A stretch of DNA of 61,592 nt from a virus. The stretch is from the IMG/VR virus record IMGVR_UViG_3300012929_000002; one strand, 5' to 3'. A program made the translations under genes and the position numbers. The notes beneath the pieces are model-generated. The model worked only from the letters and a program-made list of their open reading frames with translations, had not been told where the DNA came from and searched no databases. Positions 4,519 through 31,062 of this stretch are shown here, piece after piece; position 1 is the first letter of the stretch, and each line of letters begins with the position of its first letter.

Positions 4519-5082
4519 ATGATGATCACATGGCTTCCTCAATTCGCATTTGGCGCTAGCGCCAAGCGGCTAGACGACGAACGCCTCATGAAGCAGATCG
4601 AGATGTGCCGCAAGATGATTCCTCTTCTGGAGGCAGAGAACGATAGCCTGGAAGAGATCAGGATGTGGACAGGATATGAACAGAGATTTTGTCTATACGC
4701 CCTGATGATTGTGGGAGAGGCGATCACTAAACGGCATATTCACCCAGTGGACAGCCGTGACTTCCATAGGCTCTGGCGGGATCTCAAGGATGCCGGCGTA
4801 GGCGCGGCGCGGCCGCCGTGGGAGAAAGATGTAAACATTATTCGTAGTCACCGCAGTCGCCTAATCGCAATGGATCCCGAACGCTACAAGCCGTTATTTC
4901 CGCGCACTCCGGAAAAGATGCCGGTCCTATGGCCCCAGACATTGCGAACGGACCCAAGCGTTTATCGTCTTCGCATTAAGACGGAAGACATTATAAAGCT
5001 CGCCGACGATAGGCGGAGACTACCGCCTTGGCTTTACTACAATCCGGATCAAAACGAAGTGATTGTTAGGAGCAACAATTGA
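4519..5082 (+). CDS. Hypothetical protein, possibly pyrimidine-dimer DNA glycosylase-like
   Basis: N-terminus TWLPQFAFGASAKRLDDERLMKQ...MWTGYEQRFCLYALMIVGEAITKR resembles my memory of that family's N-terminal pattern. Not verified. Confidence 0.3.
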   Translation: MMITWLPQFAFGASAKRLDDERLMKQIEMCRKMIPLLEAENDSLEEIRMWTGYEQRFCLYALMIVGEAITKRHIHPVDSRDFHRLWRDLKDAGVGAARPPWEKDVNIIRSHRSRLIAMDPERYKPLFPRTPEKMPVLWPQTLRTDPSVYRLRIKTEDIIKLADDRRRLPPWLYYNPDQNEVIVRSNN

Positions 5083-6672: not shown

Positions 6673-9600
6673 TGGCGTATACCTTCTTCTCGCCGCATAG
6701 TCACACCACCTTCTCGTACGGCGATGGATTCGGTACGCCGGAAGATCACGCCATGCGGCTGGTGGAGCTGGGCGCGCCGGGGGCAGTGTTAACCGAACAT
6801 GGCAACGTCAGCTCTCATGCCCAGTGGGAGAAGGCGTGCAACAAGCACGGGCTACACGCGGCCTTCGGGTGCGAGCTCTACACTGCTCCGCCCGGTGAGT
6901 TGAGCAAATGGCATCTTACCGCTATCGCCGAGACGGACGAGGGCTATCGGAATCTATGCCGGCTGGTTTCTCGGAGCTGGGCGGAAGGTTTCTACCGGTG
7001 GCCGACGACGCATAGCAACATGCTCTTGGATCATTCAGAAGGGATGATGATAACTAGTGGGTGTAGCGACAGTCTGCTCGCATGTACTCTACTTGGAGGT
7101 AAGTCGCTTGGCGAGAAGCGTGAGGCGGCGAGTTCCGAAGATATCGTACGAGCCGAGGGCGTTGTTCGGTGGTTCAGTAGTGTCTACGGTGACGGTTACT
7201 ACCTGGAGGTCCAGCGGTTCCCTGAGCTGGCGCGAACGCGGACTCTCAACAGAATATACGCTGAGCTTTCGCGGAGAACGGGTGTCCCACTTGTCGCAAC
7301 TGCGGACGTCCACTATCCGAAGCCAAACCAGAATGAAATGCAGAAAATCCTCCACGCCGCTCTCCGAGGCGGAGGCAAGACCGTTGAAGGAATCGAGCAG
7401 GAGTGGGAATACGACATTCGGCTTTCGTATCCTCTCTCGGATCGGCAAGTCGTGGGACAACTCGTTGCCACCGGCCTTACGCGGCGGCAAGCTCTCGGAG
7501 CCGTAGCCGCCAGCGCTGAGATAGGTCAGCGTGCGAAGGTTGTGCTCCCGAAGAACGAGCGCATCGTCTACCCGACCGAGCCGGGCCAGACAGTAGAAGA
7601 GATGATGTGGGAGTGGCTGCGCGACGGCTGGCGGTACCGCTGGAAGCAGAACGCGCACCTTCGAGCCGATCCGCAAGCCTATCATAATCAGCTCAAGTAC
7701 GAGTCGGGCATCGTGATTGATAAGAAGTATGTGTCATATTTCTTGATGATCTCGGAGGCTGTCCGGTGGGCCAAGGACCATGGTATTGCGGTCGGGCCAG
7801 CGCGCGGTAGCGCGGCGGCTAGTCTAATCTGCTATCTGCTACGCATCACCGAGGTGGACCCGCTCCAATTCCCGCACATGATGTTTGAAAGGTTCCTAGA
7901 TGTCAGCAGAGACGACTTCCCGGATATCGATCTGGACTTCGCGGATGACCGACGCGATGAACTCCGCCAGCACCTGGTTGAAGTTTGGGGCGCAGATCGC
8001 GTCGGCAATATCGGAAACTTTGTCCGATATCGCGGCAAAAACTCCATCGACGACGTCGCCCGGGTATACCGGGTCCCAAAGTGGGCCGCCGAAAAAGTCA
8101 AGTCCCTCATCCTCGACCGCTCCGGCGGTGACGCCCGGCAGAGTGACAGCCTCGCGGACACGTTCGACTTCTTCCCGACAGCCAAGGCCATCGTCGAGCA
8201 GTTCCCGGCGCTCCGGCACGCCATAGATTTGGAGGGCGGCTACCGGGGCATGTCGGTACACGCGGCCGGCCTGGTGGTCAGCAGTACCCCCATTAGCGAT
8301 ACGTGTGCCCTCTACACTCGCGAGATGCACGGCAAACCGGTAACTGTGCTGGCCTACGACAAGAAGTCCGCCGAGCAGGTCGGCATGTTGAAGGTGGATC
8401 TGCTAGGGCTCAGTACTATGTCGATGATCGCACGGGCACTAGAGATTATCGGAATGAGCTTGGAGGAACTGTATACCATCCCGCTGGATGATCCAAAGAC
8501 TCTGGCATCCTTTAAGAATACGGATGTGGTCGGGATTTTTCAGTTTGAAGGTCGCGCTCAGCGCGTCATCACTAAGGATGTCAGCCCGGATAACTTCCTG
8601 CATCTTGCGGACATAAACGCTCTGAGTCGGCCGGGGCCGCTCTTCAGCGGAGTAGCGGCGGAGTACGTTGCACGCAAGCACGGTCGCCATGAGATCGAGA
8701 GCCTGCATCCAATCGTTGACAGGGTGACGGACTTCACATACGGTACCATCGTTTATCAGGAGCAGGTTCTCACAATCATCAAAGAAATCGGAGGCTTTCC
8801 GGTCGCCAAGGTCGGGGACATCCGCCGCATTATCTCTCAGAAGTTGGGGGAGGCAAGTATGAACAATATGCGGCAGGAGTTCCAGAGCGGAGCGCGGCGC
8901 CTTCACGGCATAAAAGAAAATCTTTCGGGCCGCATCTGGCGGCAGATGGTGACAAGTGCCAACTACAGCTTCAACATAGCGCATTGCATCTCCTATAGTA
9001 TGCTCGGGTTTTGGTGCATGTGGCTCAAGGTACACCACCCACTAGCCTTCTATGCCGCTCAACTCGCCAAGGTAAACGACGATAAGCGTCCGCGCCTCAT
9101 GAAAGACGCTATGGATCATCACATTTCCATTCTTCCGCCGCACCCCGCTCGGAGCGGTCTGACGTGGACGCCGGTAAGATCGAAGAGCGCCGTTAGAGCC
9201 GGCTTGACGCAGATGCCGGGCATCGCCGTCAAGAAAGGCGAGGCGATGCTGCTAGAGCGCAAGGCTATCCTAGATAACGCGAAGAAGACGTTGGCTCCAG
9301 GACATCATGTATCGGATATAGCGCCCTGGAAGTGGGACGATTATCTTGCGGTCCGCGGTATCGGCAAGAAGACGATCGAAAAGATGAAGGCGTTTGCGGC
9401 CGATCCAGACCCGTTCGGACTGTTGCGGGTGCGCACCACCCTGGAGAACTACCGGGCCGGCATACGGGGCCGGCGCGCAGGCTACCGGGGGCTACCTACG
9501 CCCACCCACACCAGCGGCAGTATGCCCGACGGTGCGATAGAAGAAGTTGTGTGGATGGGATTCTGCCTTAGTAAGAACTATCAGAACGCGGTGGAGAAGG

Positions 9601-19984: not shown

Positions 19985-20680
19985 GTGCCCAACTACATCG
20001 ACCAGGGGGATTTTAGTAAGGGAGAGCGGGCGCGCTCCTCTCGGGGCGGAGCGGTGCGCAAGTTCCTGAAGGATAATCCCGTCTATTGCGGACACGACTA
20101 TCAAGAGGACGACCCGACCGTTCCGGACGAGGAGTCGTTGTGTGCGAAGAAGGCGGTTCGCTATACCGACCCTCCGCGCTGCACCGAGCACGGCGGAGTC
20201 GCAGCCGAGTTCAGTCGTAAGCGCACTGAAGCGGGATACGTCCGGGTTAATCCTAAGATGGCTGCGATACTCCGAGGCGACATGGACGTCGCTGACCTTG
20301 ACGACGAAGAGCTGGCTCGCGGTGAACTCCGGGGTAAGGACGGAAAGTTTCATAGAGGACCGCGGATGGTTCCGCGAGATATGTATACCCGGATGATGAA
20401 CGAATTGTTTAAACGTGCCAACGAACAGATGAAGACGAACCTGGTCGATGCAGTGAAGGTACTGACGGCGATAGCGACTGATCCAGACGCAGATCCCAAG
20501 GATGCGATGAAGGCGGCTCAGTGGTTGATTGAACGGGTGATGGGGAAGACGCCCGAGAACGTCATCGTCACTCAGGACAAGCCGTGGCAATCCCTTCTCG
20601 TTAACGTCACTACGGACAATCCTCAGGATTACGAAGCTTTCGTCAACGAGCAGGGAAAAGAAGACGACGACAGGTTCTGA
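19985..20680 (+). CDS. Possible small terminase subunit
   Basis: GGAGG then GTG. C-terminal KDAMKAAQWLIERVMGKTPE resembles the ...AAxxLLDRGxGKP motif I recall from actinophage TerS proteins. Lies upstream of TerL. Confidence 0.35.
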   Translation: MPNYIDQGDFSKGERARSSRGGAVRKFLKDNPVYCGHDYQEDDPTVPDEESLCAKKAVRYTDPPRCTEHGGVAAEFSRKRTEAGYVRVNPKMAAILRGDMDVADLDDEELARGELRGKDGKFHRGPRMVPRDMYTRMMNELFKRANEQMKTNLVDAVKVLTAIATDPDADPKDAMKAAQWLIERVMGKTPENVIVTQDKPWQSLLVNVTTDNPQDYEAFVNEQGKEDDDRF

Positions 20681-21259: not shown

Positions 21260-21595
21260 ATGGCAGCGACCCCAGTAGCACTAATCACGGTTACCCGTAG
21301 CGGAGTTGTGAACACCACTCCGCTAGCTTGTGACAATGTCAACGGCAACGTCGTAAACGGCAACGGCGGCGGAGTATTCCTGGAGTTCAAGAACACCGAC
21401 ACCGTTAGTCACACCGTTACTGTTGCCATTCCCGGCACATTCGACGGCGTGGCGCATTCCGGTAAGCCTTGCGTCATCCCGGCTAGCGTTACCTGGAAAT
21501 TCGGTCCATTCGGCAATGCAACGTATGGACAGAACCTTACATTTACTGCGGATAGTGCGTTGGTGCAGTACGCCGCGTACCAGCTCGGGACATGA
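21260..21595 (+). CDS. Hypothetical beta-rich protein (111 aa) coupled to TerL
   Basis: Track ORF. The stop overlaps the TerL start (ATGA). Gly/Asn/Val/Thr-rich sequence. Confidence 0.55.
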   Translation: MAATPVALITVTRSGVVNTTPLACDNVNGNVVNGNGGGVFLEFKNTDTVSHTVTVAIPGTFDGVAHSGKPCVIPASVTWKFGPFGNATYGQNLTFTADSALVQYAAYQLGT

Positions 21596-23217
21596 CGACG
21601 GGGCACGCCACTCTGAGCAAGTGGGACGTCTTCCGCTTGTGCGGGTGGCGCGCCCATCGTCTACAGAGGGGCATAATCAGTAGCCCACAGCGGGCGCGTG
21701 TTGTTTCAGCCGGAAGGCGTCTTGGGAAGAGCGAGATCGGCGGGCACGAGCTTGTTGTAGAGGCATTGGCGACGGCGCCGCAGGCGGATATATTAAAAGA
21801 GGAAGGCAAGAGGCGTGAGTTCTGGGTTATTGGGCCGGAATACACGGATAGCGAGAAAGAGTTCCGGGTGTTGTGGAATAGCCTCAGTAAGATGGAGGTT
21901 CCATTTGATAGACCCGGCAGTTATAACGATCCTATCGGCGGTAGCCTGCACCTTTCACTATGGGGCGGAGCTTTTCAAGTACACGGGAAATCGGCTAAGC
22001 ACCCGGAGACGCTAGTCGGCGAAGGACTTAGCGGAGTAGTGTTGGCGGAAGCCGCCAAGCTAAAGCACCGCGTGTGGACAAAGTTTGTGCGCCCCATGCT
22101 GGCGGACTATCACGGCTGGGCGTTGATGACCAGTACGCCCGAGGGAAAAAACTGGTTTTACGAGGCGTGGCAAAACGGCCAGAATCCGGGAATGAGCGAG
22201 TGGTCTAGTTTCCGGGCGCCCAGCTGGCGGAATCCATATGTATATCGCACGCCCACTACTGATGCGGACGTAAAGTATCTGCAACAGCTTATGACACAGG
22301 TGGTCGGGAATAGGAGGCGCACTGCGGAAGAACTAGTCCGCATGTTTGAGCTAACTATTGATGACGAGATAGTGTCGCTACTGGACGATCTTACTGAAGA
22401 AGCGTTCAATCAGGAAATAGGTGCGGATTTCACTGAGTTCGTGGGGCGGGTATTCAAGGAGTTTGACGAAGAGGACCACGTAAAGGATTTAGAGTTTAAT
22501 CCGCGCTGGAAGACGGTAGCCTGTACCGACTACGGCTTCACTAATCCTAATGTCTGGCTGTTGATACAAATAGGTCCATGGAATGAAGTGCATGTCCTGG
22601 ATGAAGTATACGAACGCGGATTAACCTCTGACGAGTTCGCTAAGGAGATAGTGAGTCGCGGACTGTGTCCCTTTGGCCTCACCACCTTTTACCCGGACCC
22701 AGAAGATCCCGGCAGCACTAAAACCCTTGAAAAGATTCTTCACGTGACCAGTAGCGGTGGCACGGGCGGAGAGTTATTTGACAGACTTCAGCATATTAGG
22801 GAAGCTTTGCGCCTCATGCCAGAACACCTGGAAGATGGCCATCCCGAGAAATCGCCAACGTTGCGGATAAATCGTCGCTGTGTAAATCTGATTCGTGAGA
22901 TGCAGGATTATCGCTACCCGGACACAAAAGAAGAAGCCGGTAATACGCACGAAAAGCCCTTAAAGAAAGACGACCATACGCCCGAGGCGCTCGGTCGCTT
23001 CTTCGCGGGTTACTTCGGTAAGCCGACTCTGCGTGGCGGGACGCGCGTGCATAAGGCAAACTTGGGGCGTCGCAGCGTTAAGCCGGACGATGGCGTAACA
23101 ATTAACGCAGACGGCACTCTGCGCTATCCCTACGGCGGACCGCCCGTTCACGGTATGATTGCAGGCCAGCGCGCCACACCGGAGCAGCTAAGCCGCACAG
23201 TAAAGAGGAACTGGTAA
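21592..23217 (+). CDS. Terminase large subunit
   Basis: Walker A-like GRRLGKSEIG, LMTSTPEGKNWFYEAW, and size and position ahead of the portal. Confidence 0.85.
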   Translation: MTTGHATLSKWDVFRLCGWRAHRLQRGIISSPQRARVVSAGRRLGKSEIGGHELVVEALATAPQADILKEEGKRREFWVIGPEYTDSEKEFRVLWNSLSKMEVPFDRPGSYNDPIGGSLHLSLWGGAFQVHGKSAKHPETLVGEGLSGVVLAEAAKLKHRVWTKFVRPMLADYHGWALMTSTPEGKNWFYEAWQNGQNPGMSEWSSFRAPSWRNPYVYRTPTTDADVKYLQQLMTQVVGNRRRTAEELVRMFELTIDDEIVSLLDDLTEEAFNQEIGADFTEFVGRVFKEFDEEDHVKDLEFNPRWKTVACTDYGFTNPNVWLLIQIGPWNEVHVLDEVYERGLTSDEFAKEIVSRGLCPFGLTTFYPDPEDPGSTKTLEKILHVTSSGGTGGELFDRLQHIREALRLMPEHLEDGHPEKSPTLRINRRCVNLIREMQDYRYPDTKEEAGNTHEKPLKKDDHTPEALGRFFAGYFGKPTLRGGTRVHKANLGRRSVKPDDGVTINADGTLRYPYGGPPVHGMIAGQRATPEQLSRTVKRNW

Positions 23218-23254: not shown

Positions 23255-24922
23255 GTGACTACTCCCAATCCGACCGCCATATTCAATCAGTACAGTAACG
23301 CGAAGATCTTCTTTAGCACCTCCGTTCCAAACTGGATCGGCGCCAATAAGGAAGACCAGGATCGTGTCCGGGCTTATATGTTCTATGAGCGGCTGTACTG
23401 GAACGTTCCCGATACGCTGGCTATTGTCGAGCGCGGAGAAGATAGCCTTCCCATTTATCTTCCTTCAGCCCGGAAGATGGTTGAGGCCTGCAATCGGTTC
23501 CTGTGTGTTGACTGGGACTACAGCATTACGAGCACGGCCGGTAGTGCCAGTGATCAGGCGCAGTGCAAGGTGTTGATGGACGGGTTGTTCAAGAATCAGA
23601 AGATGAAGGCGAAGTTCGCCCGGCAGAAGCGGTACGGTCTTATCAGGGGAGATGCCGTCTGGCATGTGCGGGCGGACGCTAATCGGCCGGCCGGCAGTCG
23701 CATCGACATCTATGAAGTAGATCCCACGAATGCGTTCCCTATTCTGGAGGATCTTAATCCGGATAGGATTATCGGATGGCATCTTATCGACCTAGTGCCC
23801 GACCCGCGTGATGTTACCAAGCAAGTGGTGCGTCGTCAGACATACACCAAGGCGACAGGCGATTACTTTGGCCCTAGTATCATCATGTCCAGCATCGGCT
23901 ATTACGAGCTAGGTAAATGGGACGACAGGAAGACGGCTACTAACGCCAATCCCGAGGTAGCCATGGTTCCGTGGGAGGGGGAGATATTGCCCTTCGAGCT
24001 GCCGACGGACATCACATACCTTCCGGTTTATCTAATCCCCAATCAGAAGCAGCCGTGTCAGACTTTCGGTAGTAGCGAGGTGCGGGGAATAGAGACTGTT
24101 ATCGCTAGCGTCAATCAGTCCGTGAGCGATCAGGACCTCACTCTTGCGATGCAGGGATTGGGAGTGTATACCTCCACGGCCGGGCCGCCGGTAGCCGCCG
24201 ACGGGACAGCAGGAACATTCGATATCGGTCCTGGAAGAGTTGTTGAGGTTCCAGCCGACGCTACATTCTCCAGAGTGAGCGGAGTAGGAGCTAGCCTGCC
24301 CGGAATTGAACACATGAATTTTATTCTTGGAGAAACACAGTCTGCCGTAGGCATCCCAGATATTGCGGCCGGCATTGTTGACGTCTCCGTCGCGGAAAGT
24401 GGCATCGCGCTCCAATTGCAACTCAGTCCTCTTCTTTCTCATAACAAGGAGAAGGAGACGGATATGATGGACGAGTACAACTGCATGTTCCGGGATTTGG
24501 TGGAGGGCTGGTTTCCGGCGTACGAAGGATTTGGTTCTAACACGGGTGTAGAGGTCACGATGATAACGGGCAATCCTGTACCCCAGGATAGAGCGGCCCG
24601 ATTTAAGGAGATTGTTGAATTGGTGCAAGCCGTCCCGCCGCTGATGTCTACTCGTACCGCGATTGATGAGCTAAATAAGATCGGGTACGACATGCCGAAG
24701 GACGAGTTGGATCAACTCACTCAGGAGGCACAAGCCCGAGCGCAGACAATGCAATTGGATCCGTTTGCTCAGCGTGCCCTGGGAGAGTTTGCTGCTCCGG
24801 TTAACTCGGCGGGCAATGCGGTGCCCCCTTCCACGCTGCCTGTAGCTCCGCCTAAGCCGATCAACGGTCTATCCGGGGGTGCTGGCGCTGCCGGGGGCCC
24901 TAAACCAGCCACAGGGCACTAG
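23255..24922 (+). CDS. Portal protein
   Basis: 555 aa directly after TerL. Called from gene order and size. No motif verified. Confidence 0.7.
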   Translation: MTTPNPTAIFNQYSNAKIFFSTSVPNWIGANKEDQDRVRAYMFYERLYWNVPDTLAIVERGEDSLPIYLPSARKMVEACNRFLCVDWDYSITSTAGSASDQAQCKVLMDGLFKNQKMKAKFARQKRYGLIRGDAVWHVRADANRPAGSRIDIYEVDPTNAFPILEDLNPDRIIGWHLIDLVPDPRDVTKQVVRRQTYTKATGDYFGPSIIMSSIGYYELGKWDDRKTATNANPEVAMVPWEGEILPFELPTDITYLPVYLIPNQKQPCQTFGSSEVRGIETVIASVNQSVSDQDLTLAMQGLGVYTSTAGPPVAADGTAGTFDIGPGRVVEVPADATFSRVSGVGASLPGIEHMNFILGETQSAVGIPDIAAGIVDVSVAESGIALQLQLSPLLSHNKEKETDMMDEYNCMFRDLVEGWFPAYEGFGSNTGVEVTMITGNPVPQDRAARFKEIVELVQAVPPLMSTRTAIDELNKIGYDMPKDELDQLTQEAQARAQTMQLDPFAQRALGEFAAPVNSAGNAVPPSTLPVAPPKPINGLSGGAGAAGGPKPATGH

Positions 24923-24977: not shown

Positions 24978-25211
24978 ATGAAGATGGCTGGTGGTTACGG
25001 CACGGAAGGAGACGTGTGGCCTACTATGCGACGGAAGCCAGCAATCAAGATCAAGAAGGCGAACCGGGGCAAGCTTCGCAAGGCGACGCGAACCAAGAAG
25101 GGCAAGACGATACCGGTCGCAACTCTGCGCAAGCTGACGAGCAGTAAGAACCCGACAACGCGTAAGCGAGCGAACTTCGCTCTTAACGCCAAGAAGTGGA
25201 AGAAGAAGTAA
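24978..25211 (+). CDS. Lys/Arg-rich small protein (77 aa)
   Basis: Track ORF with G/C-ending codons (aag, cgc, acg). Followed by the RBS of the next gene. The competing frame 24938..25147 looks less gene-like. Confidence 0.5.
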   Translation: MKMAGGYGTEGDVWPTMRRKPAIKIKKANRGKLRKATRTKKGKTIPVATLRKLTSSKNPTTRKRANFALNAKKWKKK

Positions 25212-25221
25212 GGAGGCGAAC

Positions 25222-25650
25222 GTGGGCGGCACCGGTAGCGGAGGGGCTCGTCCTTTTCATACTGATCCTAAGCAATGCGAGTACTGCGGAGACACTTACA
25301 CTCCACGAGGTAATCGTTCTAAGTATTGCCAGGAGTGCGCGCCAAACAGGTGGGCCTCTGGGCTCATCCGTAGATACGGAATAAGTTTTAAGGATTATAA
25401 GCAACTCCTAGAAGAACAGGATTACTGCTGCGCAATATGCAGCAATCCGTTTAGGAGCAGGGAGCTGCCGATATGGGTGCCGGGACAAGAACGCGTCGCA
25501 ACTGACATGCACGTAGACCACGATCATATAACCGGTTGGGTTCGTGGGATACTATGTCTTTCCTGTAATACACGGCTAGCCGCTTTGGAAGATGAGAAGT
25601 GGCATGACAAGGCGGAGAAGTACCTCGCCGAATGTACGGAGGTGAGTTGA
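25222..25650 (+). CDS. HNH endonuclease, recombination endonuclease VII type
   Basis: CAICSNPF...HVDHDHITGWVRGILCLSCNTRL matches the Endo VII HNH signature. AAGGAGG RBS and GTG start. Confidence 0.85.
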   Translation: MGGTGSGGARPFHTDPKQCEYCGDTYTPRGNRSKYCQECAPNRWASGLIRRYGISFKDYKQLLEEQDYCCAICSNPFRSRELPIWVPGQERVATDMHVDHDHITGWVRGILCLSCNTRLAALEDEKWHDKAEKYLAECTEVS

Positions 25651-25703
25651 CACTGTGGCCAGGAAAAAGAGTGCTCGGGCTATTGCATCCGGAGTACAGC
25701 ATC

Positions 25704-25877
25704 ATGGGTTTTATTCCAAGGCTCAGTGGCGATAGCTACTTCTTCGCTAACAAGAAGCTGGCGGCCAAGTACGCTCACAATGCAGCGCACGCCACTCAGG
25801 CACGCGGAGGCGGCCCTAAGGTAGCCTTCCGTAGGTTGCCTCGTAAACTACATCCGGGGAAGAGGGTGGCTCGATGA
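25704..25877 (+). CDS. Small basic protein (57 aa; see the recoding note for 25655..25735)
   Basis: In frame within track ORF 25632..25877. ATGA coupling to the next gene. Confidence 0.4.
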   Translation: MGFIPRLSGDSYFFANKKLAAKYAHNAAHATQARGGGPKVAFRRLPRKLHPGKRVAR

Positions 25878-26239
25878 GCTTCACACCTTCCCTGCATCCC
25901 AGAGATCTATTGGGTCAGTTCAGTGGAGTCAGCGGGAGTAATAAGCGCCTCAAGAAGATCCATAAGTCTAAGGCGAAGCTCCAGGCGGCTCAGTCCAACT
26001 TTGTGGCGACAGCCAGTGTGCGCACCGTGGGCGGAGGGCGTAGGCCGCTCACTACGGCGGAAGCGCGCAGGTTCCTCAACGACACTAACGTCAGCGTCAA
26101 TAGGGTGCAGGGCGCTACGTCTGCTCGGCGGAGTGCGGCCAAGAAAGTTATGATCGCTCGGAGCGCGCATCTGAAGAACTTCGGGCGTAAGCCACGTCCG
26201 CTGCCTAGGGTTCGTAATGCCGGCAGGAGGCTAAAGTGA
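25874..26239 (+). CDS. Basic protein with HPRDxxGxF motif (121 aa)
   Basis: Track ORF with ATGA overlap. N-terminal SLHPRDLLGQF. Arg/Lys-rich. Confidence 0.6.
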   Translation: MSFTPSLHPRDLLGQFSGVSGSNKRLKKIHKSKAKLQAAQSNFVATASVRTVGGGRRPLTTAEARRFLNDTNVSVNRVQGATSARRSAAKKVMIARSAHLKNFGRKPRPLPRVRNAGRRLK

Positions 26240-26282
26240 CAGGATCGCTCGCCTTTAGTTCCTTCGGAACGGAGGCTCACTA

Positions 26283-26858
26283 ATGCCACTCCCAGCTATT
26301 ATCGGTGGTATCGCTGCGGCGAGGGCGGCGCACGGCATCTGGAACGCGAGCCGGCATCCTAGAGGCGAGGGCGGTCGGTTTGTTCCGGCAGGGAAGTTTA
26401 GCTATCGGGTGTCTACTCGTAGCGCTACTGTTCACTACGGGCACACATTTCCTCTTATCCCTGGTAAAGCTAATCTATACGTCGGGGCTCTGGCTCGAGT
26501 GGAACGGACTAGAGGACACGAGACGGCCGTGGAGAAAAAGATTAGGGCACGCGGCAAACAGCTCACGGAAAAGTTACCGGCCAAATTCCAGAGCGTTTTA
26601 AGTAAGGGCGGATACGAAAGTCCAAGCGGCACTACTATCAGTTTTAGTAAGCCCAAGATTCGTCAGCCACAGATTAGGGCCAGCAGGCGGATAGGAACAG
26701 TGGGTAAGGCTCCAGCTAAAATGCCGATCACGGGTGGTGGCACGGGAGTGCGTCAAGTTCGTAGCCCCAATCGCAAGCCGAGGACCAGGAGCATCACTCC
26801 GGCGACTGTTGCCCAGCCAACTCTCAGTAAGGCCACGGGGAAGAAGGTGAAGAAGTAA
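26283..26858 (+). CDS. Basic protein with HPRGxxGRF motif (191 aa)
   Basis: GGAGG RBS. SRHPRGEGGRFVPAG near the N-terminus. Arg/Lys-rich throughout. Confidence 0.6.
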   Translation: MPLPAIIGGIAAARAAHGIWNASRHPRGEGGRFVPAGKFSYRVSTRSATVHYGHTFPLIPGKANLYVGALARVERTRGHETAVEKKIRARGKQLTEKLPAKFQSVLSKGGYESPSGTTISFSKPKIRQPQIRASRRIGTVGKAPAKMPITGGGTGVRQVRSPNRKPRTRSITPATVAQPTLSKATGKKVKK

Positions 26859-26932
26859 TGGGCGGTAAGCCGAGCAAGGGAACACCGAAGGATAAGCGCC
26901 TCGGGAAGAAGAGTAAGAAGAAGGGATACTAA
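26858..26932 (+). CDS. Basic micro-ORF (24 aa, MGGKPSKGTPKDKRLGKKSKKKGY)
   Basis: TAATG overlap with the upstream stop. 10 of 24 residues are K/R. Confidence 0.35.
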   Translation: MGGKPSKGTPKDKRLGKKSKKKGY

Positions 26933-26934
26933 GG

Positions 26935-27069
26935 ATGGCAAGCGCGAAGCAACTCGCGGCCCGCAAGGCTTTTGCAGCGAGAGCCAAAGCTCGGGCCGGC
27001 AAGAGTGGAAAGAAGAAGGTCGGCAAGAAGCCGGCGTTTCTGCTCAAGGGTAAGAGGAAAGGAAAGTAA
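26935..27069 (+). CDS. Basic micro-ORF (44 aa, MASAKQLAARKAFAARAKARAGKSGKKKVGKKPAFLLKGKRKGK)
   Basis: ATG lies 2 nt after the previous stop. 17 of 44 residues are K/R. Its stop is 1 nt before the JAB gene start. Confidence 0.4.
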   Translation: MASAKQLAARKAFAARAKARAGKSGKKKVGKKPAFLLKGKRKGK

Positions 27070-27070
27070 C

Positions 27071-27481
27071 ATGAGGCCGGAGACCCAGGAGTCCATGCCA
27101 CATGACATTGCTCACGAATTGCGCAGTCTTATTCCGCAAGTAGGTCCTGGAGTTTTTGAGCGTTGCGGATTTATTCTAGTGGACGCTAGCAGGAACTGGA
27201 AGATTATTGAGATAGAAAATAGAAGCGCTAATCCAGGTGAGTTTGTTATGGCTATAGAAGATCTTTCCCGACTATGGAATTCATACGGGACAGAGCTGAT
27301 CGGGGTATGGCATACTCATCCTCGTGGAGATAGAAGGCCGAGCGAGAAGGATGTCCAGTGGGCGCCTCCGGATCTTAGATACTGGATAGTGACGGAGTGG
27401 GGAGTGTCGGAATACGATATGGCTCAGAGTCCTGTGAAATGTATTGCTTATCATGGGATGCCGGATAATGGACGCTCGTGA
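27071..27481 (+). CDS. JAB/MPN (JAMM) metallopeptidase
   Basis: Complete JAMM motif: upstream Glu (FERCGFIL) plus HTHPRGDRRPSEKD (HxHx7Sx2D). In frame within track ORF 26972..27481. Confidence 0.7.
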   Translation: MRPETQESMPHDIAHELRSLIPQVGPGVFERCGFILVDASRNWKIIEIENRSANPGEFVMAIEDLSRLWNSYGTELIGVWHTHPRGDRRPSEKDVQWAPPDLRYWIVTEWGVSEYDMAQSPVKCIAYHGMPDNGRS

Positions 27482-28346
27482 GATCTGGCTGAAGCCGTAT
27501 CTTTCAATCCAGGGTACGTATGACACCAAGATTCTTATGGTCCTGAATTCAGCCGCTGCCAGCGCGGCAAAAGCCGTGAAGGGTCTGGCCGGTAAGGAAG
27601 GTATAGGAGCAACTGTACGGAGGGCGCAGCTTACTCAGATAGAGACGGCCCTGCATCGAATAATGCATCAGCTATTCAAAGATGTTGGAGACATCACTTC
27701 TGCCGGTCAGCACCTGGCCGCAGCTCGGGCATTATCAGCAGGTTTTGACTGGGATAGCATCCTATTGCACTCGGTATACGGTAGCGACCCGAAGCGCCGG
27801 GAAGTGATGAGGCGTAATCTGGTAGCGCAGGCTCCTAGGAATATAGAAGCGCTAATCATCAGGCTTAGGCGAGGCGGACTGCCTTTGAGCCAGCAGGTAT
27901 ACCGATCTATGGCGCTATCTCAGGGATGGGTAAACGCGGCTATTAGTAATGCTCTCGGCCGAGGAGCCAGTTGGTCTGAGCTGGCTAATGACGTTCGTAA
28001 GTTTATAGATCCCGCTACGCCTGGCGGAGTTAGCTATGCGGCCAAGAGACTGGCTCGTACCGAGATTAACAACGCCTATCACGCCGTGGCGATTCAAGAT
28101 ATGGCCGGGAAGCCGTGGGTTAAGCAAGTTCAGTGGCGACTAAGCAATAGTCATTCTAAGCTGGATATTTGCAATGTGTACGCGAGCCGTAAGTACACTC
28201 CGCAGGATGTACCGGCTAAGCCGCACCCGCAATGTTTCTGTTACGTGGTCCCAGTATTGATTAGCAGTCGGGAATTTCTGGCCGCCTGGCAGGCCGGGAG
28301 ATATGACGACTATCTAGCCGCGACCTATGGTAAGGCTGCCGCCTAG
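27468..28346 (+). CDS. MuF-like head morphogenesis protein (SPP1 gp7 family)
   Basis: RLARTEINNAYH and KPHPQCFCYVVPV motifs. The track ORF begins at 27444. The ATG at 27468 overlaps the JAB 3' end. Confidence 0.8.
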   Translation: MDAREIWLKPYLSIQGTYDTKILMVLNSAAASAAKAVKGLAGKEGIGATVRRAQLTQIETALHRIMHQLFKDVGDITSAGQHLAAARALSAGFDWDSILLHSVYGSDPKRREVMRRNLVAQAPRNIEALIIRLRRGGLPLSQQVYRSMALSQGWVNAAISNALGRGASWSELANDVRKFIDPATPGGVSYAAKRLARTEINNAYHAVAIQDMAGKPWVKQVQWRLSNSHSKLDICNVYASRKYTPQDVPAKPHPQCFCYVVPVLISSREFLAAWQAGRYDDYLAATYGKAAA

Positions 28347-28375: not shown

Positions 28376-29059
28376 ATGAACATTCACGCGGGGCTGTGCC
28401 CCGACCTCGTCCGGTTGTGCCGGCGAGTTCCTGTCTGGGTTTCCGTTGGCATCTCCGGCGCCGAGGGCGAAGGCTCTGGAACTGGTGACGGTAACGGTGA
28501 CAACGCAGACGGAGAAACCCCGAGGGAGAAGGCCCTTCGGGAAGAGAAAGACAGGCATTTCGCTAAGGCTAGGGAAGCCAAGGAAAAGCTTGAAGCTGCC
28601 GAGGCCACTCTGGCAGAAGTGAATGCCCGCCTCAAGGAAATTGAGGACAAGGATAAGAGCGAAACGGAAAAGGCCAAGTCCGATGCCGAGGCTGCGCTTA
28701 CGGCAAAGGAAAAGGCTGACGCGGATCTAGTCGCTGCCCAGAAGAAGAATGACGAGCTTCAGATCCAGATTGCGTTCCTGGCGAGTAGCAAGTACACCTG
28801 GCATGACGCCGGTGTCGCACTACAGCTAGTGAACGGCTTTGGCGAGATAGAGGTTAAAGACGGTGAGGTAAAGGGGCTGGACAAGGCGATCGATAAGATG
28901 GCCAAGGACAAGCCTTTCCTAGTGAAGTCTGGGGGCACTGCGGCTGGTGGAGTAAGCGGTCAGCAGCCCAACGGATCCAGTACTCGACCTGCCGGACAAG
29001 AGGGAATCACAAACGCTCAGAAAGCTGAATTAGCAACGAAGTACAACATCCCCCGCTAG
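28376..29059 (+). CDS. Scaffolding protein
   Basis: Ala/Glu/Lys-rich coiled-coil-like sequence between MuF and the capsid gene. Start uncertain. Confidence 0.6.
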   Translation: MNIHAGLCPDLVRLCRRVPVWVSVGISGAEGEGSGTGDGNGDNADGETPREKALREEKDRHFAKAREAKEKLEAAEATLAEVNARLKEIEDKDKSETEKAKSDAEAALTAKEKADADLVAAQKKNDELQIQIAFLASSKYTWHDAGVALQLVNGFGEIEVKDGEVKGLDKAIDKMAKDKPFLVKSGGTAAGGVSGQQPNGSSTRPAGQEGITNAQKAELATKYNIPR

Positions 29060-29096: not shown

Positions 29097-29537
29097 ATGG
29101 CCCGCTATGATAAGTACAATCCGGTTTCGGGAGGGTTCCGAGCCGTACTGGCGGCGGACTACGCTCCCGGCGCCGCTAACCCGGCCGACCCGCTGAACCC
29201 GGCTAACTTCAACAAGGTCTTCCCAGCGCAGATGGATACTACCGGTGCTATTCTGGCTCCGGCGGCTGCGGTCTTCGGCAAGTTCGTCGGAGTCTTCATC
29301 ATCAGCGGTCTGATCAAGTATGCCGGTGATGTTATTGACATCATGACGGCTGGTGAGATTGTGGACTTTGACGACGGCAAGCAAGCCGGTGTCGTGGCTA
29401 ACCAAGCTTGGTACGCCGACCCGGCGACGGGCCTGCTCACCCTTACTCCTCCCGGTTCTGGCGTGAATGGCTTTTACGTCGGTAACACGGTGGAAGCTGG
29501 CCGCCTGATCGTTCGCTGTCAGAAGGTGCAACTGTGA
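29097..29537 (+). CDS. Head-associated protein (possible decoration/DUF2190-like)
   Basis: AGGAG RBS. Lies between the scaffold and capsid genes. The function is guessed from position. Confidence 0.4.
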   Translation: MARYDKYNPVSGGFRAVLAADYAPGAANPADPLNPANFNKVFPAQMDTTGAILAPAAAVFGKFVGVFIISGLIKYAGDVIDIMTAGEIVDFDDGKQAGVVANQAWYADPATGLLTLTPPGSGVNGFYVGNTVEAGRLIVRCQKVQL

Positions 29538-30736
29538 AGACTGCATACAGTATCAATCGCCGAACCGGCGAACTCACGCCTGGCTGGGTCCTCGGCGGTA
29601 TTCGAGGCGCGGAGCACGGCTACAACGCCGAAGGTGATATCCTTAACGTCACGGCGGATGGCCGCGATATCACTGGTCTCTGGACGGAGTTTCAGCAGAC
29701 GCTGGCCATTTATAACGAGCGTCGTACTACGCTGGTCGGCATCCTCACGTTCCCGATTCAGCAACTCGTTGAGGACGTTCCTGTTATCGGCGAGACGAAC
29801 TTCGAGCTCGCGTCTGAGTTCGGTGTGCCGGTGGGCGTGCGGCCGCGAGTGCAGTACAACAGTCTGGCGTACGACTTCCATGACTACGATGTCGCTAGTC
29901 GGTTTACCTGGAAGTTCATCAGGGACGCTAGCGCTCAGCAGGTGGAGGCTGTTCATCAGCAGATTCTGAACGCCGATAATCGCCTCCTATTCCGCAAGGT
30001 AATGGAAGCGATCTTCGACAATCGGGATCGTAGTACGCTGGTCAATCGGACTGCGTATACGGTGGTTCCACTTTACAACGCTGACGGTGTTGTTCCTCCG
30101 CCCTACAAGAACACTACGTTCGCGGGCAGTCATAGTCACTACCTGGTTAGTGGCGCCGCTAACATCGATAGCGACGACGTCATGGCGCTTTACAATCTGG
30201 TGGCCGAGCACGGTTACGGCATTGAACAGGGGACGACGTTCGTTCTCTTGTGTAACCAGGCCGAAGTCGATAAGATTCGTACCTGGCGAGCCGGAGTCGT
30301 TAACGCCAACGGTGTCACAGCCAACTACGACTTCATCCCTTCGGCCAGTCAGCCGACGATCATCCTACCTAACGCGGAGGGCTTGCTCGGTAGTCAGCCG
30401 CCGAGTATCTGGAACGGTCTGCCCGTCGTGGGGTCTTACGCGGACATCTTAATCGTCCACGAAGACTACATCCCGGCCGGCTATCCGTTGCTGCTGGGCA
30501 GCGGCGGGAACGGCAATCTCCAGAATCCGGTCGGTCTGCGGGAACACGCGAATCCGGCGTACCGGGGTCTGCGCCTGCTGCCGGGTAATAACCAGGCGTA
30601 TCCGCTGATCGACAGCTACTATGCTCGCGCTTTTGGCACGGGTGTACGGCAGCGCGGCGGCGCGGCAGTGCTGATGGTCGGCACCGGCAGTTACGTCATT
30701 CCTCCGCAGTACATCAAGGGTGGTGCTCTCGGATGA
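29534..30736 (+). CDS. Major capsid protein
   Basis: 400 aa. GTGA coupling to the upstream gene. Position after the scaffold. Confidence 0.7.
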   Translation: MKTAYSINRRTGELTPGWVLGGIRGAEHGYNAEGDILNVTADGRDITGLWTEFQQTLAIYNERRTTLVGILTFPIQQLVEDVPVIGETNFELASEFGVPVGVRPRVQYNSLAYDFHDYDVASRFTWKFIRDASAQQVEAVHQQILNADNRLLFRKVMEAIFDNRDRSTLVNRTAYTVVPLYNADGVVPPPYKNTTFAGSHSHYLVSGAANIDSDDVMALYNLVAEHGYGIEQGTTFVLLCNQAEVDKIRTWRAGVVNANGVTANYDFIPSASQPTIILPNAEGLLGSQPPSIWNGLPVVGSYADILIVHEDYIPAGYPLLLGSGGNGNLQNPVGLREHANPAYRGLRLLPGNNQAYPLIDSYYARAFGTGVRQRGGAAVLMVGTGSYVIPPQYIKGGALG

Positions 30737-31062
30737 GCGTGAAGATCGATCTCACCAAACCCCTGACCGAAGAGCACGTGGAATACCTTCGGGCGCGGGG
30801 AGCCTGGGGCGAGCGGCAGCTCGCCGAGAACAAGGCGTTGTTGAGTCAGCAGGAATTTTACGCCGCTAAGGAGCGCCCGGAGCCGGACGAGATGTCGGTC
30901 GAGGAAAAGGTAAAGCTCTTGGAAGAGGCCGAGGTGTGGATTACAAACGCCAAGGTTCCGGAACTGAAGCAGCGCCTTAGTGAAGAAGGTTTGTCAACCG
31001 AGGGGAAGCAGGACGAGTTGCGAACCCGCTTGATGGATCTTGTGACTGAGCGCTACTCGTAG
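30733..31062 (+). CDS. SAP-domain protein (109 aa)
   Basis: ATGA overlap. C-terminal VPELKQRLSEEGLSTEGKQDELRTRLMD fits the SAP helix-extension-helix consensus. Confidence 0.6.
   Translation: MSVKIDLTKPLTEEHVEYLRARGAWGERQLAENKALLSQQEFYAAKERPEPDEMSVEEKVKLLEEAEVWITNAKVPELKQRLSEEGLSTEGKQDELRTRLMDLVTERYS

Follow-up and report, generated by a model that had tools for sequence, protein, structure and literature searches.

The stretch analyzed here, IMG/VR virus record IMGVR_UViG_3300012929_000002 (61,592 nucleotides of uncultured, metagenomic origin; hereafter the window), is ~61.6 kb long, resembles a complete phage genome and is transcribed almost wholly from the plus strand. No DNA similarity to the window was detected among cultured phages in either near or distant search modes. 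Its actinophage-like head module has the gene order TerL, portal, a cassette of strongly basic proteins at 24978-27069, a JAB/JAMM metallopeptidase (JAB), MuF, scaffold, a 146-aa minor-capsid homologue and major capsid protein (MCP). The cassette is the subject of this analysis, as is a 14-residue tag carried by two of its proteins that recurs beside portal and MuF genes in unrelated tailed viruses. The upstream edge of the cassette is the portal gene (23255..24922, plus strand, as are all cassette and head features below; phrog_64, E 4e-32), the product of which is ~40% identical to the portals of Nocardia phage P3.1, Gordonia Terapinvirus, Micrococcus phage Kurnik and Mycobacterium clusters. 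The downstream edge, beyond JAB, is a MuF-like minor head protein of the SPP1 gp7 family (27468..28346; phrog_17987, E 2e-60; PF04233, E 6e-4; TIGR01641).

The cassette consists of five conserved genes, A to E, of which B is broken in the window, plus a 24-aa open reading frame (ORF). Protein A (24978..25211) has 77 residues, or 75 if its start is at 24984, and is followed, after B, by protein C (25874..26239, 121 aa), protein D (26283..26858, 191 aa), the 24-aa ORF (26858..26932; MGGKPSKGTPKDKRLGKKSKKKGY) and protein E (26935..27069, 44 aa). Lysine and arginine together account for 26 of the 77 residues of A (pI 12), 28 residues of C, 38 of D, 10 of the 24-aa ORF and 17 of E. Ranked by basicity, A and C lead the 94 plus-strand ORFs of the window and D has the largest net charge (+32), while E is more basic per residue than all 94; the cluster stands out within its own genome and is no product of chance. 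An earlier note on this DNA, made by reading the sequence alone, had listed these ORFs together with their composition, the ~2.5 kb that separate portal and MuF and the tight spacing of the genes (here -4 to 43 nt), all of which we could confirm.

Two further ORFs that the note had counted as members have a different origin. The first (25222..25650) encodes an Endo VII-type HNH endonuclease, as the note had recognized (PF02945, E 2.9e-15, 56.4 bits against a curated cut-off of 23.6; phrog_2914). This gene is present in the window and in five other loci (L249-L253) but is missing from three relatives (L005, L008 and L009), which indicates a mobile insertion; similar EndoVII genes occur at other positions in Gordonia phage LittleFella (L002 6011-6403) and in Patience, where gp7 lies between TerL and portal. 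The EndoVII gene is a selfish mobile element that targets head modules and is not cargo. The second, a 57-aa ORF (25704-25877) that had been taken for a small basic protein of its own, is what remains of the 3' part of gene B (phrog_1375), which is intact in L008 and L009 and encodes 67-74 aa there. Its N-terminal fragment (25655..25735; GTG start, 26 aa, MARKKSARAIASGVQHHGFYSKAQWR and then a stop) matches the N-terminus of the intact L008 and L009 genes, and the C-terminal part (25736..25877; phrog_1375, E 1.5e-9) continues in another frame. Alignment with L009 revealed the cause to be a 4-nt insertion, GATA (~25731..25734), which lies ~80 nt 3' of the mobile HNH gene. Two independent assemblies, ENA ERZ27253148 and JGI 3300015053, contain exactly this insertion, so that it is real; it could be a homing-site immunity scar or mark a tolerated pseudogene. 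Homologues of B lie directly 3' of the portal gene in Hawkeye (gp11) and Barnyard (gp9).

The cassette is common to the three related genomes L005, L008 and L009, and comparison with these gave dN/dS values of 0.14-0.38 for A, 0.09-0.15 for C, 0.12-0.21 for D and 0.09-0.36 for E, with 0.09 over 23 codons for the 24-aa ORF. These are in the same range as those of portal (0.08-0.2) and JAB (0.2-0.46), and the cassette genes are real, conserved and under purifying selection. Protein A has an N-terminal GYxxEGDxWP motif followed by a polybasic body and is conserved in all three relatives. Protein C, which combines a tag with a partly helical basic body, has 13 homologues at 60-100% identity, and D has 18 metagenomic homologues in which W20, HPR25-27, G31 and F33 are invariant. 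D is composed of a Gly/Ala amphipathic N-terminus, the tag, a β-hairpin core (RVSxRSATVxYG...LYVGALARVER) and a basic tail ending in VRSPNRKPRTRS, and both core and tail are kept in its homologues. The 24-aa ORF is homologous to the C-terminus of a 58-aa ORF in L008 and to 49-aa ORFs in L021, L022 and L029 (GGKPSKGTRKDKRL). Its slot is filled in L005 (6665-6895) and L009 (6638-6874) by an unrelated, acidic 76-78-aa protein (pI ~4.5), which indicates that the cassette swaps members even between close relatives.

None of A, C, D, E or the 24-aa ORF has a match in Pfam, PHROGs or NCBIfam. For C and D, tblastn against 50,697 phage records also gave no matches, so these families are known from metagenomes only. 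Histone-like or nucleoid proteins (HU, H1/Hc1, Lsr2) were likewise not matched by any cassette protein in Pfam or NCBIfam. Structure prediction, which the note had suggested for C and D, was informative in part: the AF2 model of D is largely disordered with a weak hairpin (pLDDT 46.6), while that of C is helical and moderately confident (pLDDT 68.7, pTM 0.62) and has no fold relative in PDB or BFVD (best E 0.45). Weak matches of the C model to KcsA, ribosomal proteins and SAMHD1 were dismissed as noise. Profile comparison of D, another of its suggestions, was productive: hhalign matched the D family to a family comprising Patience gp18, Barnyard gp16 and proteins of P3.1 and LittleFella (gp8) with E 4.8e-5 and a probability of 68%.

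A portal-profile scan of IMG/VR yielded 80 loci, which included 51 distinct loci with both portal and MuF. The gap between these two genes ranges from 0 to 6.9 kb in the 51 loci, contrary to the note's premise that portal and MuF are normally adjacent, and holds at least one basic ORF in 34 of them and at least three in 19. P3.1, LittleFella and Barnyard each have several extremely basic proteins between portal and JAB, with MuF next, and portal, basic proteins, JAB and MuF follow one another in many IMG/VR contigs. In Hawkeye one basic protein (gp11) precedes JAB, which MuF follows, and in Kurnik and L004 the gap holds JAB only. The portal-MuF cassette is thus a trait of the lineage and no anomaly.

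The most informative member of this lineage is Mycobacteriophage Patience (L091), which has the same order of portal, cassette, JAB, MuF, scaffold, minor capsid protein and MCP as the window, in a head module that combines its MCP with a trimeric minor capsid protein. Its gene 111 and gp10-gp18 lie between the portal gp8 and gp19 ("protease")/MuF-like gp20 (Pope 2014, PMC4324244), and we find that gp19 is a JAB protein. The products of gene 111 and gp10-gp18 were detected by HPLC-MS/MS in CsCl-purified particles, while the 31-aa gp9 was not, and gp15 (32 kDa) is among the three major virion bands (PMC4324244). Gp15 contains 66 lysine and arginine residues. The intact homologue of B matches Patience gp10 (BLASTP, E 3e-9), and D is related to the gp18 family as described above; Patience orthologues of A, C and E were not demonstrable. 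The cassette at 24978-27069 therefore belongs to the documented Patience-type kind of portal-to-protease virion proteins, with which it shares capsid lineage, position, extreme basicity, two homologous families and a nearby EndoVII gene, and homologues of cassette proteins are virion proteins. It differs in that Patience carries an AALRKAQ-type tag and not HPRDxxGRF, and in that most members are not orthologous to those of the window. The suggestion of the earlier note that the whole island is packaged gains indirect support from these syntenic virion proteins (B with gp10, D with gp18) but does not extend to the HNH endonuclease, which is unrelated, or to the ORF that is only a fragment. The arrangement itself is documented in Patience, without a function; the roles that the note had put forward as undescribed for it, histone-like charge neutralization or ejected anti-restriction cargo, are conjectural. 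Gp15 was tentatively placed in the shell by a 2020 cryo-EM paper. A 2025 cryo-EM paper on the Patience and Adjutor capsids modelled an accessory protein, gp4, with the major and minor capsid proteins (PMC11965321); a term search of that article found no occurrence of gp15, which is an absence of mention and not a demonstrated absence from the shell. This silence fits an internal, disordered location of gp15 but is no proof of it.

The feature that sets C and D apart is the tag. The note had seen HPRxxGxF in both proteins, and six-frame translation of the window gave matches to the motif in these two only. In C the tag reads F3-TPSL-HPRD-LL-GQ-F16 (25880..25921) and in D W20-NASR-HPRG-EG-GR-F33 (26340..26381). 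The extended consensus of this motif (tag 1) spans 14 residues, [WF]-x-[EP]-x-[LK]-HPR-[DG]-xx-G-[RK]-[FW], and takes the form [FW]-N-[PS]-x-[LQ]-[HQK]-[PK]-R-[DG]-xx-G-[RK]-[FW] in the capsid lineage of the window, where it nearly always lies within residues 3-30 of a basic ORF. Both C and D agree with consensus positions outside the search pattern, C with an aromatic residue at -5, proline at -3 and leucine at -1. In the lineage, 40 matches fall inside portal-MuF gaps and 15 in the other ~2.2 million six-frame residues, and 10 of these 15 lie just downstream of portal in loci without a detected MuF. The raw island enrichment is ~200-fold and exceeds 400-fold when those ten are counted as island. 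An analogy to NPTH-type autocleavage for the WNPxLH variants was rejected, since N-P occurs in only about one fifth of tags.

A second N-terminal module (tag 2, AALRKAQ-type), M-T-x-A-R-R-AALRKAQLASARKRR, heads basic paralogues in Patience, Barnyard, L084, L087 and L231. Up to six such paralogues occur per genome (L091 7300-11075; L011, Barnyard, 6769-8023; L231; L244), and a single-pattern scan for tag 2 returned N-terminal matches in basic ORFs of contigs with short ORFs and multiple paralogues, several of them from this capsid lineage. Protein E, which is kept in all four related genomes, has an N-terminus (MASAKQLAARKAF) that resembles tag 2. The same D-like core bears tag 1 in Barnyard gp16 and the window and tag 2 in Patience gp18 and L087, which indicates that the N-terminal modules are interchangeable, like targeting signals.

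Several tag-like or tagged sequences of the lineage stand apart. A TerS-like ORF of the window (19985-20680; phrog_10899, E 5.5e-29) holds an internal ELARGELRGKDGKF, and the corresponding position in its L083 and L088 homologues is occupied by PRDARGKF and PRGENGKF; the ELRGKDGKF of this ORF is at most a candidate third copy of the tag, as it lacks both HP and the aromatic residue at -5 and is kept in just three loci. In L008, an uncalled 78-aa ORF between two called genes (4819-5055) has the tag KLHPRDRNGKF and a Gly-rich hydrophobic tail, and would be the third tagged protein of that genome. Gly/Ala-rich, hydrophobic, glycine-zipper-like segments are found right after the tag in many tagged proteins (Patience gp11, 13, 14, 15 and 17, the L008 ORF and P0068), with a comparable segment in D at residues 4-17. 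Such segments hint at membrane insertion or oligomerization.

The note had described HPRxxGxF as a recurrent motif of head-associated and MuF-neighboring phage proteins, which proved correct and, given the enrichment above and the distribution that follows, understated. A scan of IMG/VR with one codon-restricted exact pattern (HPRDxxGRF) retrieved at least 120 stretches. Among the matches listed, positions that had not been selected for are kept, with W/F at -5 in 64%, E/P at -3 in 81% and L/K at -1; where the ORF start is defined, 65% of the matches fall in residues 1-60, and just 10 are in short ORFs. The 84 upstream neighbors of tagged genes in this set include ~18 of portal families, 22 DUF6582, 8 MuF and ~10 TerL, four sampled upstream neighbors of ~800 aa each were assigned to portal or portal-MuF proteins by PHROGs, and the downstream neighbors include capsid and prohead protease genes. 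The tagged proteins carry ADP-ribosyltransferase (ART), ART-PolyVal, Zeta toxin, NUDIX, RelA/SpoT, PBECR, GNAT and kinase-like domains, the same repertoire as in MuF toxins and polyvalent proteins. In L100, for example, the order is TerL, portal, tagged ART protein, MuF, protease, MCP; Streptomyces phage Gilgamesh encodes an N-terminally tagged protein of 4624 aa, gp48, after a portal-MuF fusion; and the HHTV-1 virus of archaea has a Mu gpF-like gene downstream of that for the tagged gp13. The tag is thus specific to portal/MuF neighborhoods.

A search of 1.84 billion representative proteins with the D-family profile recovered ~35 small D-like proteins and ~85 giant proteins that match through the tag only, of which each contains 2-18 copies. 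There are 18 in P0035 (7334 aa) and 16 in P0052 (5313 aa), in the form WDExKHPRGEHG[KR][FW] and with one copy per module of 150-700 aa. P0053 (1488 aa) starts with an N-terminal MuF domain that is followed by tag-delimited modules, including NUDIX, and the HPRGEGGRF of D is found unchanged in the giant proteins P0052 and P0058. A second short-peptide tblastn search returned mostly T5-like matches (E ~5) that were dismissed as chance. No description of the motif was found in the searchable literature by motif-string search, term searches of PMC5576092 (MuF toxins) and PMC5512222 (polyvalent proteins) found no mention of such a motif, and literature searches on P3.1 returned nothing relevant.

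The cassette is followed directly by JAB, the true start of which is 27071 (27071..27481; PF14464, E 2.4e-11, in agreement with the identity given in the note). Its E...HTHx7SxxD site is intact (FERCGF...HTHPRGDRRPSEKD), which places it in the JAMM/MPN+ family, and its best relative in PDB is JAMM1 of P. furiosus, a SAMP-deconjugase (5LD9, E 1.6e-6). Jackhmmer was used to call JAB presence across the loci, as single-sequence phmmer misses the divergent L045 and L064; the catalytic motif is intact in 35 of 37 loci. No second protease was identified in the scanned part of the head module of the window. Alignment of MCP N-termini revealed a difference between loci with and without JAB. In loci with JAB, scaffold and MCP have N-terminal leaders that end in φ-x-φ-x-G-[GAS] before an acidic or Ser/Thr residue, while in most loci without JAB the MCP starts directly with M-x-[KR]-G-F-[NH] and the scaffold starts in its acidic region. 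In the window, the leader of the scaffolding protein (28376..29059; phrog_4866) is encoded at 28376-28465 and reads VWVSVGISGA|EGEG, and that of the MCP (29534..30736; Patience-like group) is encoded at 29534-29626 and reads WVLGGIRGA|EHGYN; the scaffold would be cut after residue 28-29. The N-terminal-most peptide reported for Patience gp21 starts at residue 35, after a glycine (PMC4324244). The sequence at this position, ...VLPIFGG|TSPE (L091 12449-12553), fits the leader site. Because JAB presence tracks the leaders of scaffold and MCP and the gp21 N-terminus fits, we read JAB as the prohead protease of the lineage, which probably trims scaffold and MCP leaders at φ-x-G-[GAS]|[EDST] and not the tag.

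The closest characterized enzymes, archaeal JAMM1 and desampylase (5LD9, HvJAMM1), share the minimal JAMM/MPN+ fold and the catalytic motif with JAB, and their Gly-Gly cut matches the N-terminus of Patience gp21. The phage module differs in having no ubiquitin-like partner, and the phage substrates appear to be scaffold and capsid leaders. A literature search on JAMM capsid proteases returned nothing relevant; with JAB, a JAMM-type enzyme joins the candidate prohead proteases.

On balance, we lean towards reading 24978-27069 as the internal-cargo cassette of a Patience-like actinophage head module, with polybasic proteins, predicted to be mostly disordered, that are loaded by tags. Internal location, tag-mediated loading, DNA binding and ejection are what we infer from the evidence above. 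In the mechanism that we propose, late expression would yield the cassette proteins along with portal, JAB, MuF, scaffold and MCP, and they would be loaded into the procapsid ahead of DNA packaging. Loading would proceed via the short N-terminal tags, with C and D carrying [WF]-x-[EP/A]-x-[LKR]-HPR-[DG]-xx-G-[RKQ]-[FW], E a putative variant of the lineage-specific AALRKAQ-type tag and A a third motif. The tag may dock the cargo on a conserved element of the portal vertex, for which portal and MuF are candidates, or on the head interior. The polybasic bodies could then settle on the packaged DNA and exit the head with it at infection.

A number of observations weigh against this proposal. Patience carries tag 2 only, so its virion proteomics cover no tag-1 protein, and the homology between D and gp18 is modest (probability 68%), with pairwise BLAST negative. 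Relatives of A and C were detected in a narrow clade only. An external location, or sticky basic proteins that co-purify with virions, could also account for the Patience data. The one-tag-per-module spacing in the polyproteins would suit a processing site equally well, and tag 1 occurs in 18 lineage loci with JAB and in none without, while 16 loci with JAB have no tag (Fisher p = 1e-4, uncorrected for phylogeny). Lastly, the cleavage site reported for the MCP of Patience, 82|83 (VVQ|IGE; PMC4324244), is not of the Gly-Gly type, which leaves our model of JAB substrates incomplete.

Extending the cargo reading beyond this lineage, we hypothesize that the 14-residue tag could work universally among tailed viruses, both bacterial and archaeal, as a portable signal for head loading or head retention that fixes unrelated cargo non-covalently to the portal/MuF vertex or the packaged DNA. 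Such cargo would include polybasic chains like those of the window at one extreme and, at the other, ADP-ribosyltransferases, toxins and polyvalent proteins of 7000 aa in which every module has its tag. This wider claim is tentative, and we put it at slightly under an even chance.

Ejected proteins need not be charge neutralizers. The cassette proteins could instead be envelope- or DNA-delivery helpers or anti-defense effectors that exit ahead of or with the DNA and protect its ends, block restriction or open the actinobacterial envelope. The tag is indeed shared with obvious injected effectors (ART, Zeta toxin, RelA/SpoT, PBECR), many island proteins including D (residues 4-17) have glycine-zipper-like segments, and island content differs greatly among related phages, as is typical of arms-race genes. 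We consider this alternative unlikely: A, C, D and E lack enzymatic and known anti-defense domains, the core families of B and D are conserved across wide distances, which is a better fit to a structural role, and the major band formed by Patience gp15 suits a stoichiometric and not a catalytic one.

The presence of a protease next to the cassette raises a second alternative, in which the tag is a proteolytic site that JAB or another head protease cuts at the invariant glycine (G|[RK][FW]). A leader would be removed from the stand-alone proteins and the polyproteins would be cut into modules, as T4 gp21 does with capsid-targeting sequences. Because JAB accompanies tag 1 in each of the 18 lineage loci that carry it, a link between the two is conceivable. 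JAMM enzymes cut after a C-terminal glycine, and the SAMP-deconjugase JAMM1 is the nearest solved structure. Patience gp21 provides a documented Gly-Gly cut in this same head module, and the giant proteins have one tag per 150-700-aa module. However, the tag is common in JAB-less phages that use other proteases such as S78 or phrog_15531/133, and R-[DG]-xx-G-[RK]-[FW] is unlike the scaffold and MCP consensus φ-x-G-[GAS]|[EDST], which makes cleavage of the tag by JAB a minority hypothesis. The tag often starts at residue 3-10, where a cut would take off almost nothing, and ~14 residues are conserved on both sides of the glycine, more than at a usual cleavage site. We rate cleavage of the tag as slightly less probable than an effector role.

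It is improbable that the cassette proteins are non-structural, cytoplasmic factors that condense DNA late in infection or assist packaging, and that those of Patience stick to particles adventitiously. Their extreme basicity makes non-specific co-purification plausible, and no obvious small terminase gene lies beside TerL (21592-23217), the TerS-like ORF at 19985-20680 holding the loosely tag-like ELRGKDGKF. Against this stand the nine different Patience island proteins in CsCl-banded particles, including a 37-aa product, one of them as abundant as capsid and tail subunits, and the strict linkage of the tag to portal/MuF across unrelated viruses, which points to a role in the virion. Least probable is a lack of translation of the small ORFs, those of 24 and 44 aa and the 57-aa fragment, with a basicity owed to A/G-rich sequence: AT and GC skew are positive in 24978-27069, gene B is truly disrupted and homologues of the 24-aa ORF occur in some relatives only, with the acidic protein in its place in L005 and L009, but all four genomes have the 44-aa ORF (dN/dS 0.09-0.36), L008, L021, L022 and L029 retain the core of the 24-aa peptide, and a 37-codon Patience gene at the same position is expressed according to mass spectrometry.

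The internal-cargo reading has precedents in better characterized viruses. The internal proteins IPI, IPII and IPIII of phage T4 are small basic proteins with an N-terminal capsid-targeting sequence (CTS) that are loaded into the prohead, reside with the DNA there and are ejected together with it, and IPI* has anti-restriction activity. The gp22 scaffold core is the binding partner of the CTS, which gp21 cleaves off at L/I-x-E. The cassette resembles this system in its small basic proteins with a short N-terminal signal, and loading and ejection in the window would be analogous. It differs in having no sequence similarity, a tag unrelated to the CTS, and a JAMM enzyme in place of a gp21-type protease; no cassette protein matched an internal-protein family in PHROGs, Pfam or NCBIfam, so that they do not fall into the T4-type class. 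The adenovirus core proteins VII, V and mu, which have been demonstrated to condense the genome and are processed by adenain, are similarly Arg/Lys-rich, disordered virion proteins encoded together with a maturation protease. They belong to an unrelated realm and differ in sequence and protease, and condensation by the window proteins is a conjecture. Encapsulin cargo-loading peptides are usually C-terminal and have a known mode of shell binding. They offer an analogy only, as short, conserved terminal peptides that dock unrelated cargo on the interior of an HK97-fold shell, but their sequence is different and the tag is N-terminal.

The MuF toxins and polyvalent proteins (Jamet 2017, PMC5576092; Iyer 2017, PMC5512222) are also encoded beside portal and MuF and are presumed to be packaged and injected, and their effector repertoire (ART, Zeta toxin, RelA/SpoT, PBECR, NUDIX) is found on HPRDxxGRF-tagged proteins. 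In contrast, C and D have neither a MuF nor an enzymatic (Pfam) domain but a polybasic chain only, and thus fall outside this class. MuF in the lineage of the window is a separate gene of 292-300 aa, and the short tag alone is shared with the MuF toxin/polyvalent class. By their agreement with the extended consensus and their adjacency to portal/MuF, C and D belong to the class of tag-bearing head-module proteins.

These results place abundant Patience-like virion proteins such as gp15, which have had no assigned location or function since 2014, in a wide, fast-evolving polybasic cassette with interchangeable N-terminal tags, and the tag on C and D ties that cassette to the larger set of MuF-associated toxins and polyvalent proteins. 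With a defined tag of 14 residues, the selection of proteins for packaging and injection becomes directly testable. A universal tag, if it exists, would explain how injected effectors are chosen for packaging and would provide a simple handle to load engineered proteins into phage heads, with possible use in therapeutic phages.

Some further features were noted in the head modules. The minor-capsid homologue of the window (146 aa) begins MARYDKY. Directly 3' of the MCP gene, a 109-aa protein (30733-31062) has a SAP-like motif, and its homologues in L005 and L009 carry PF02037; a DNA-binding SAP domain is unusual in a head module. Three apparent annotation slips were found in GenBank records: the frame chosen for LittleFella gp6 (L002 5977-6403) overlaps the EndoVII ORF, the JAB ORF of Kurnik (L003 7517-7864) is replaced by a hypothetical protein in another frame, and the D-like basic protein of P3.1 (L001 8544-9254) is labelled 'capsid maturation protease'.

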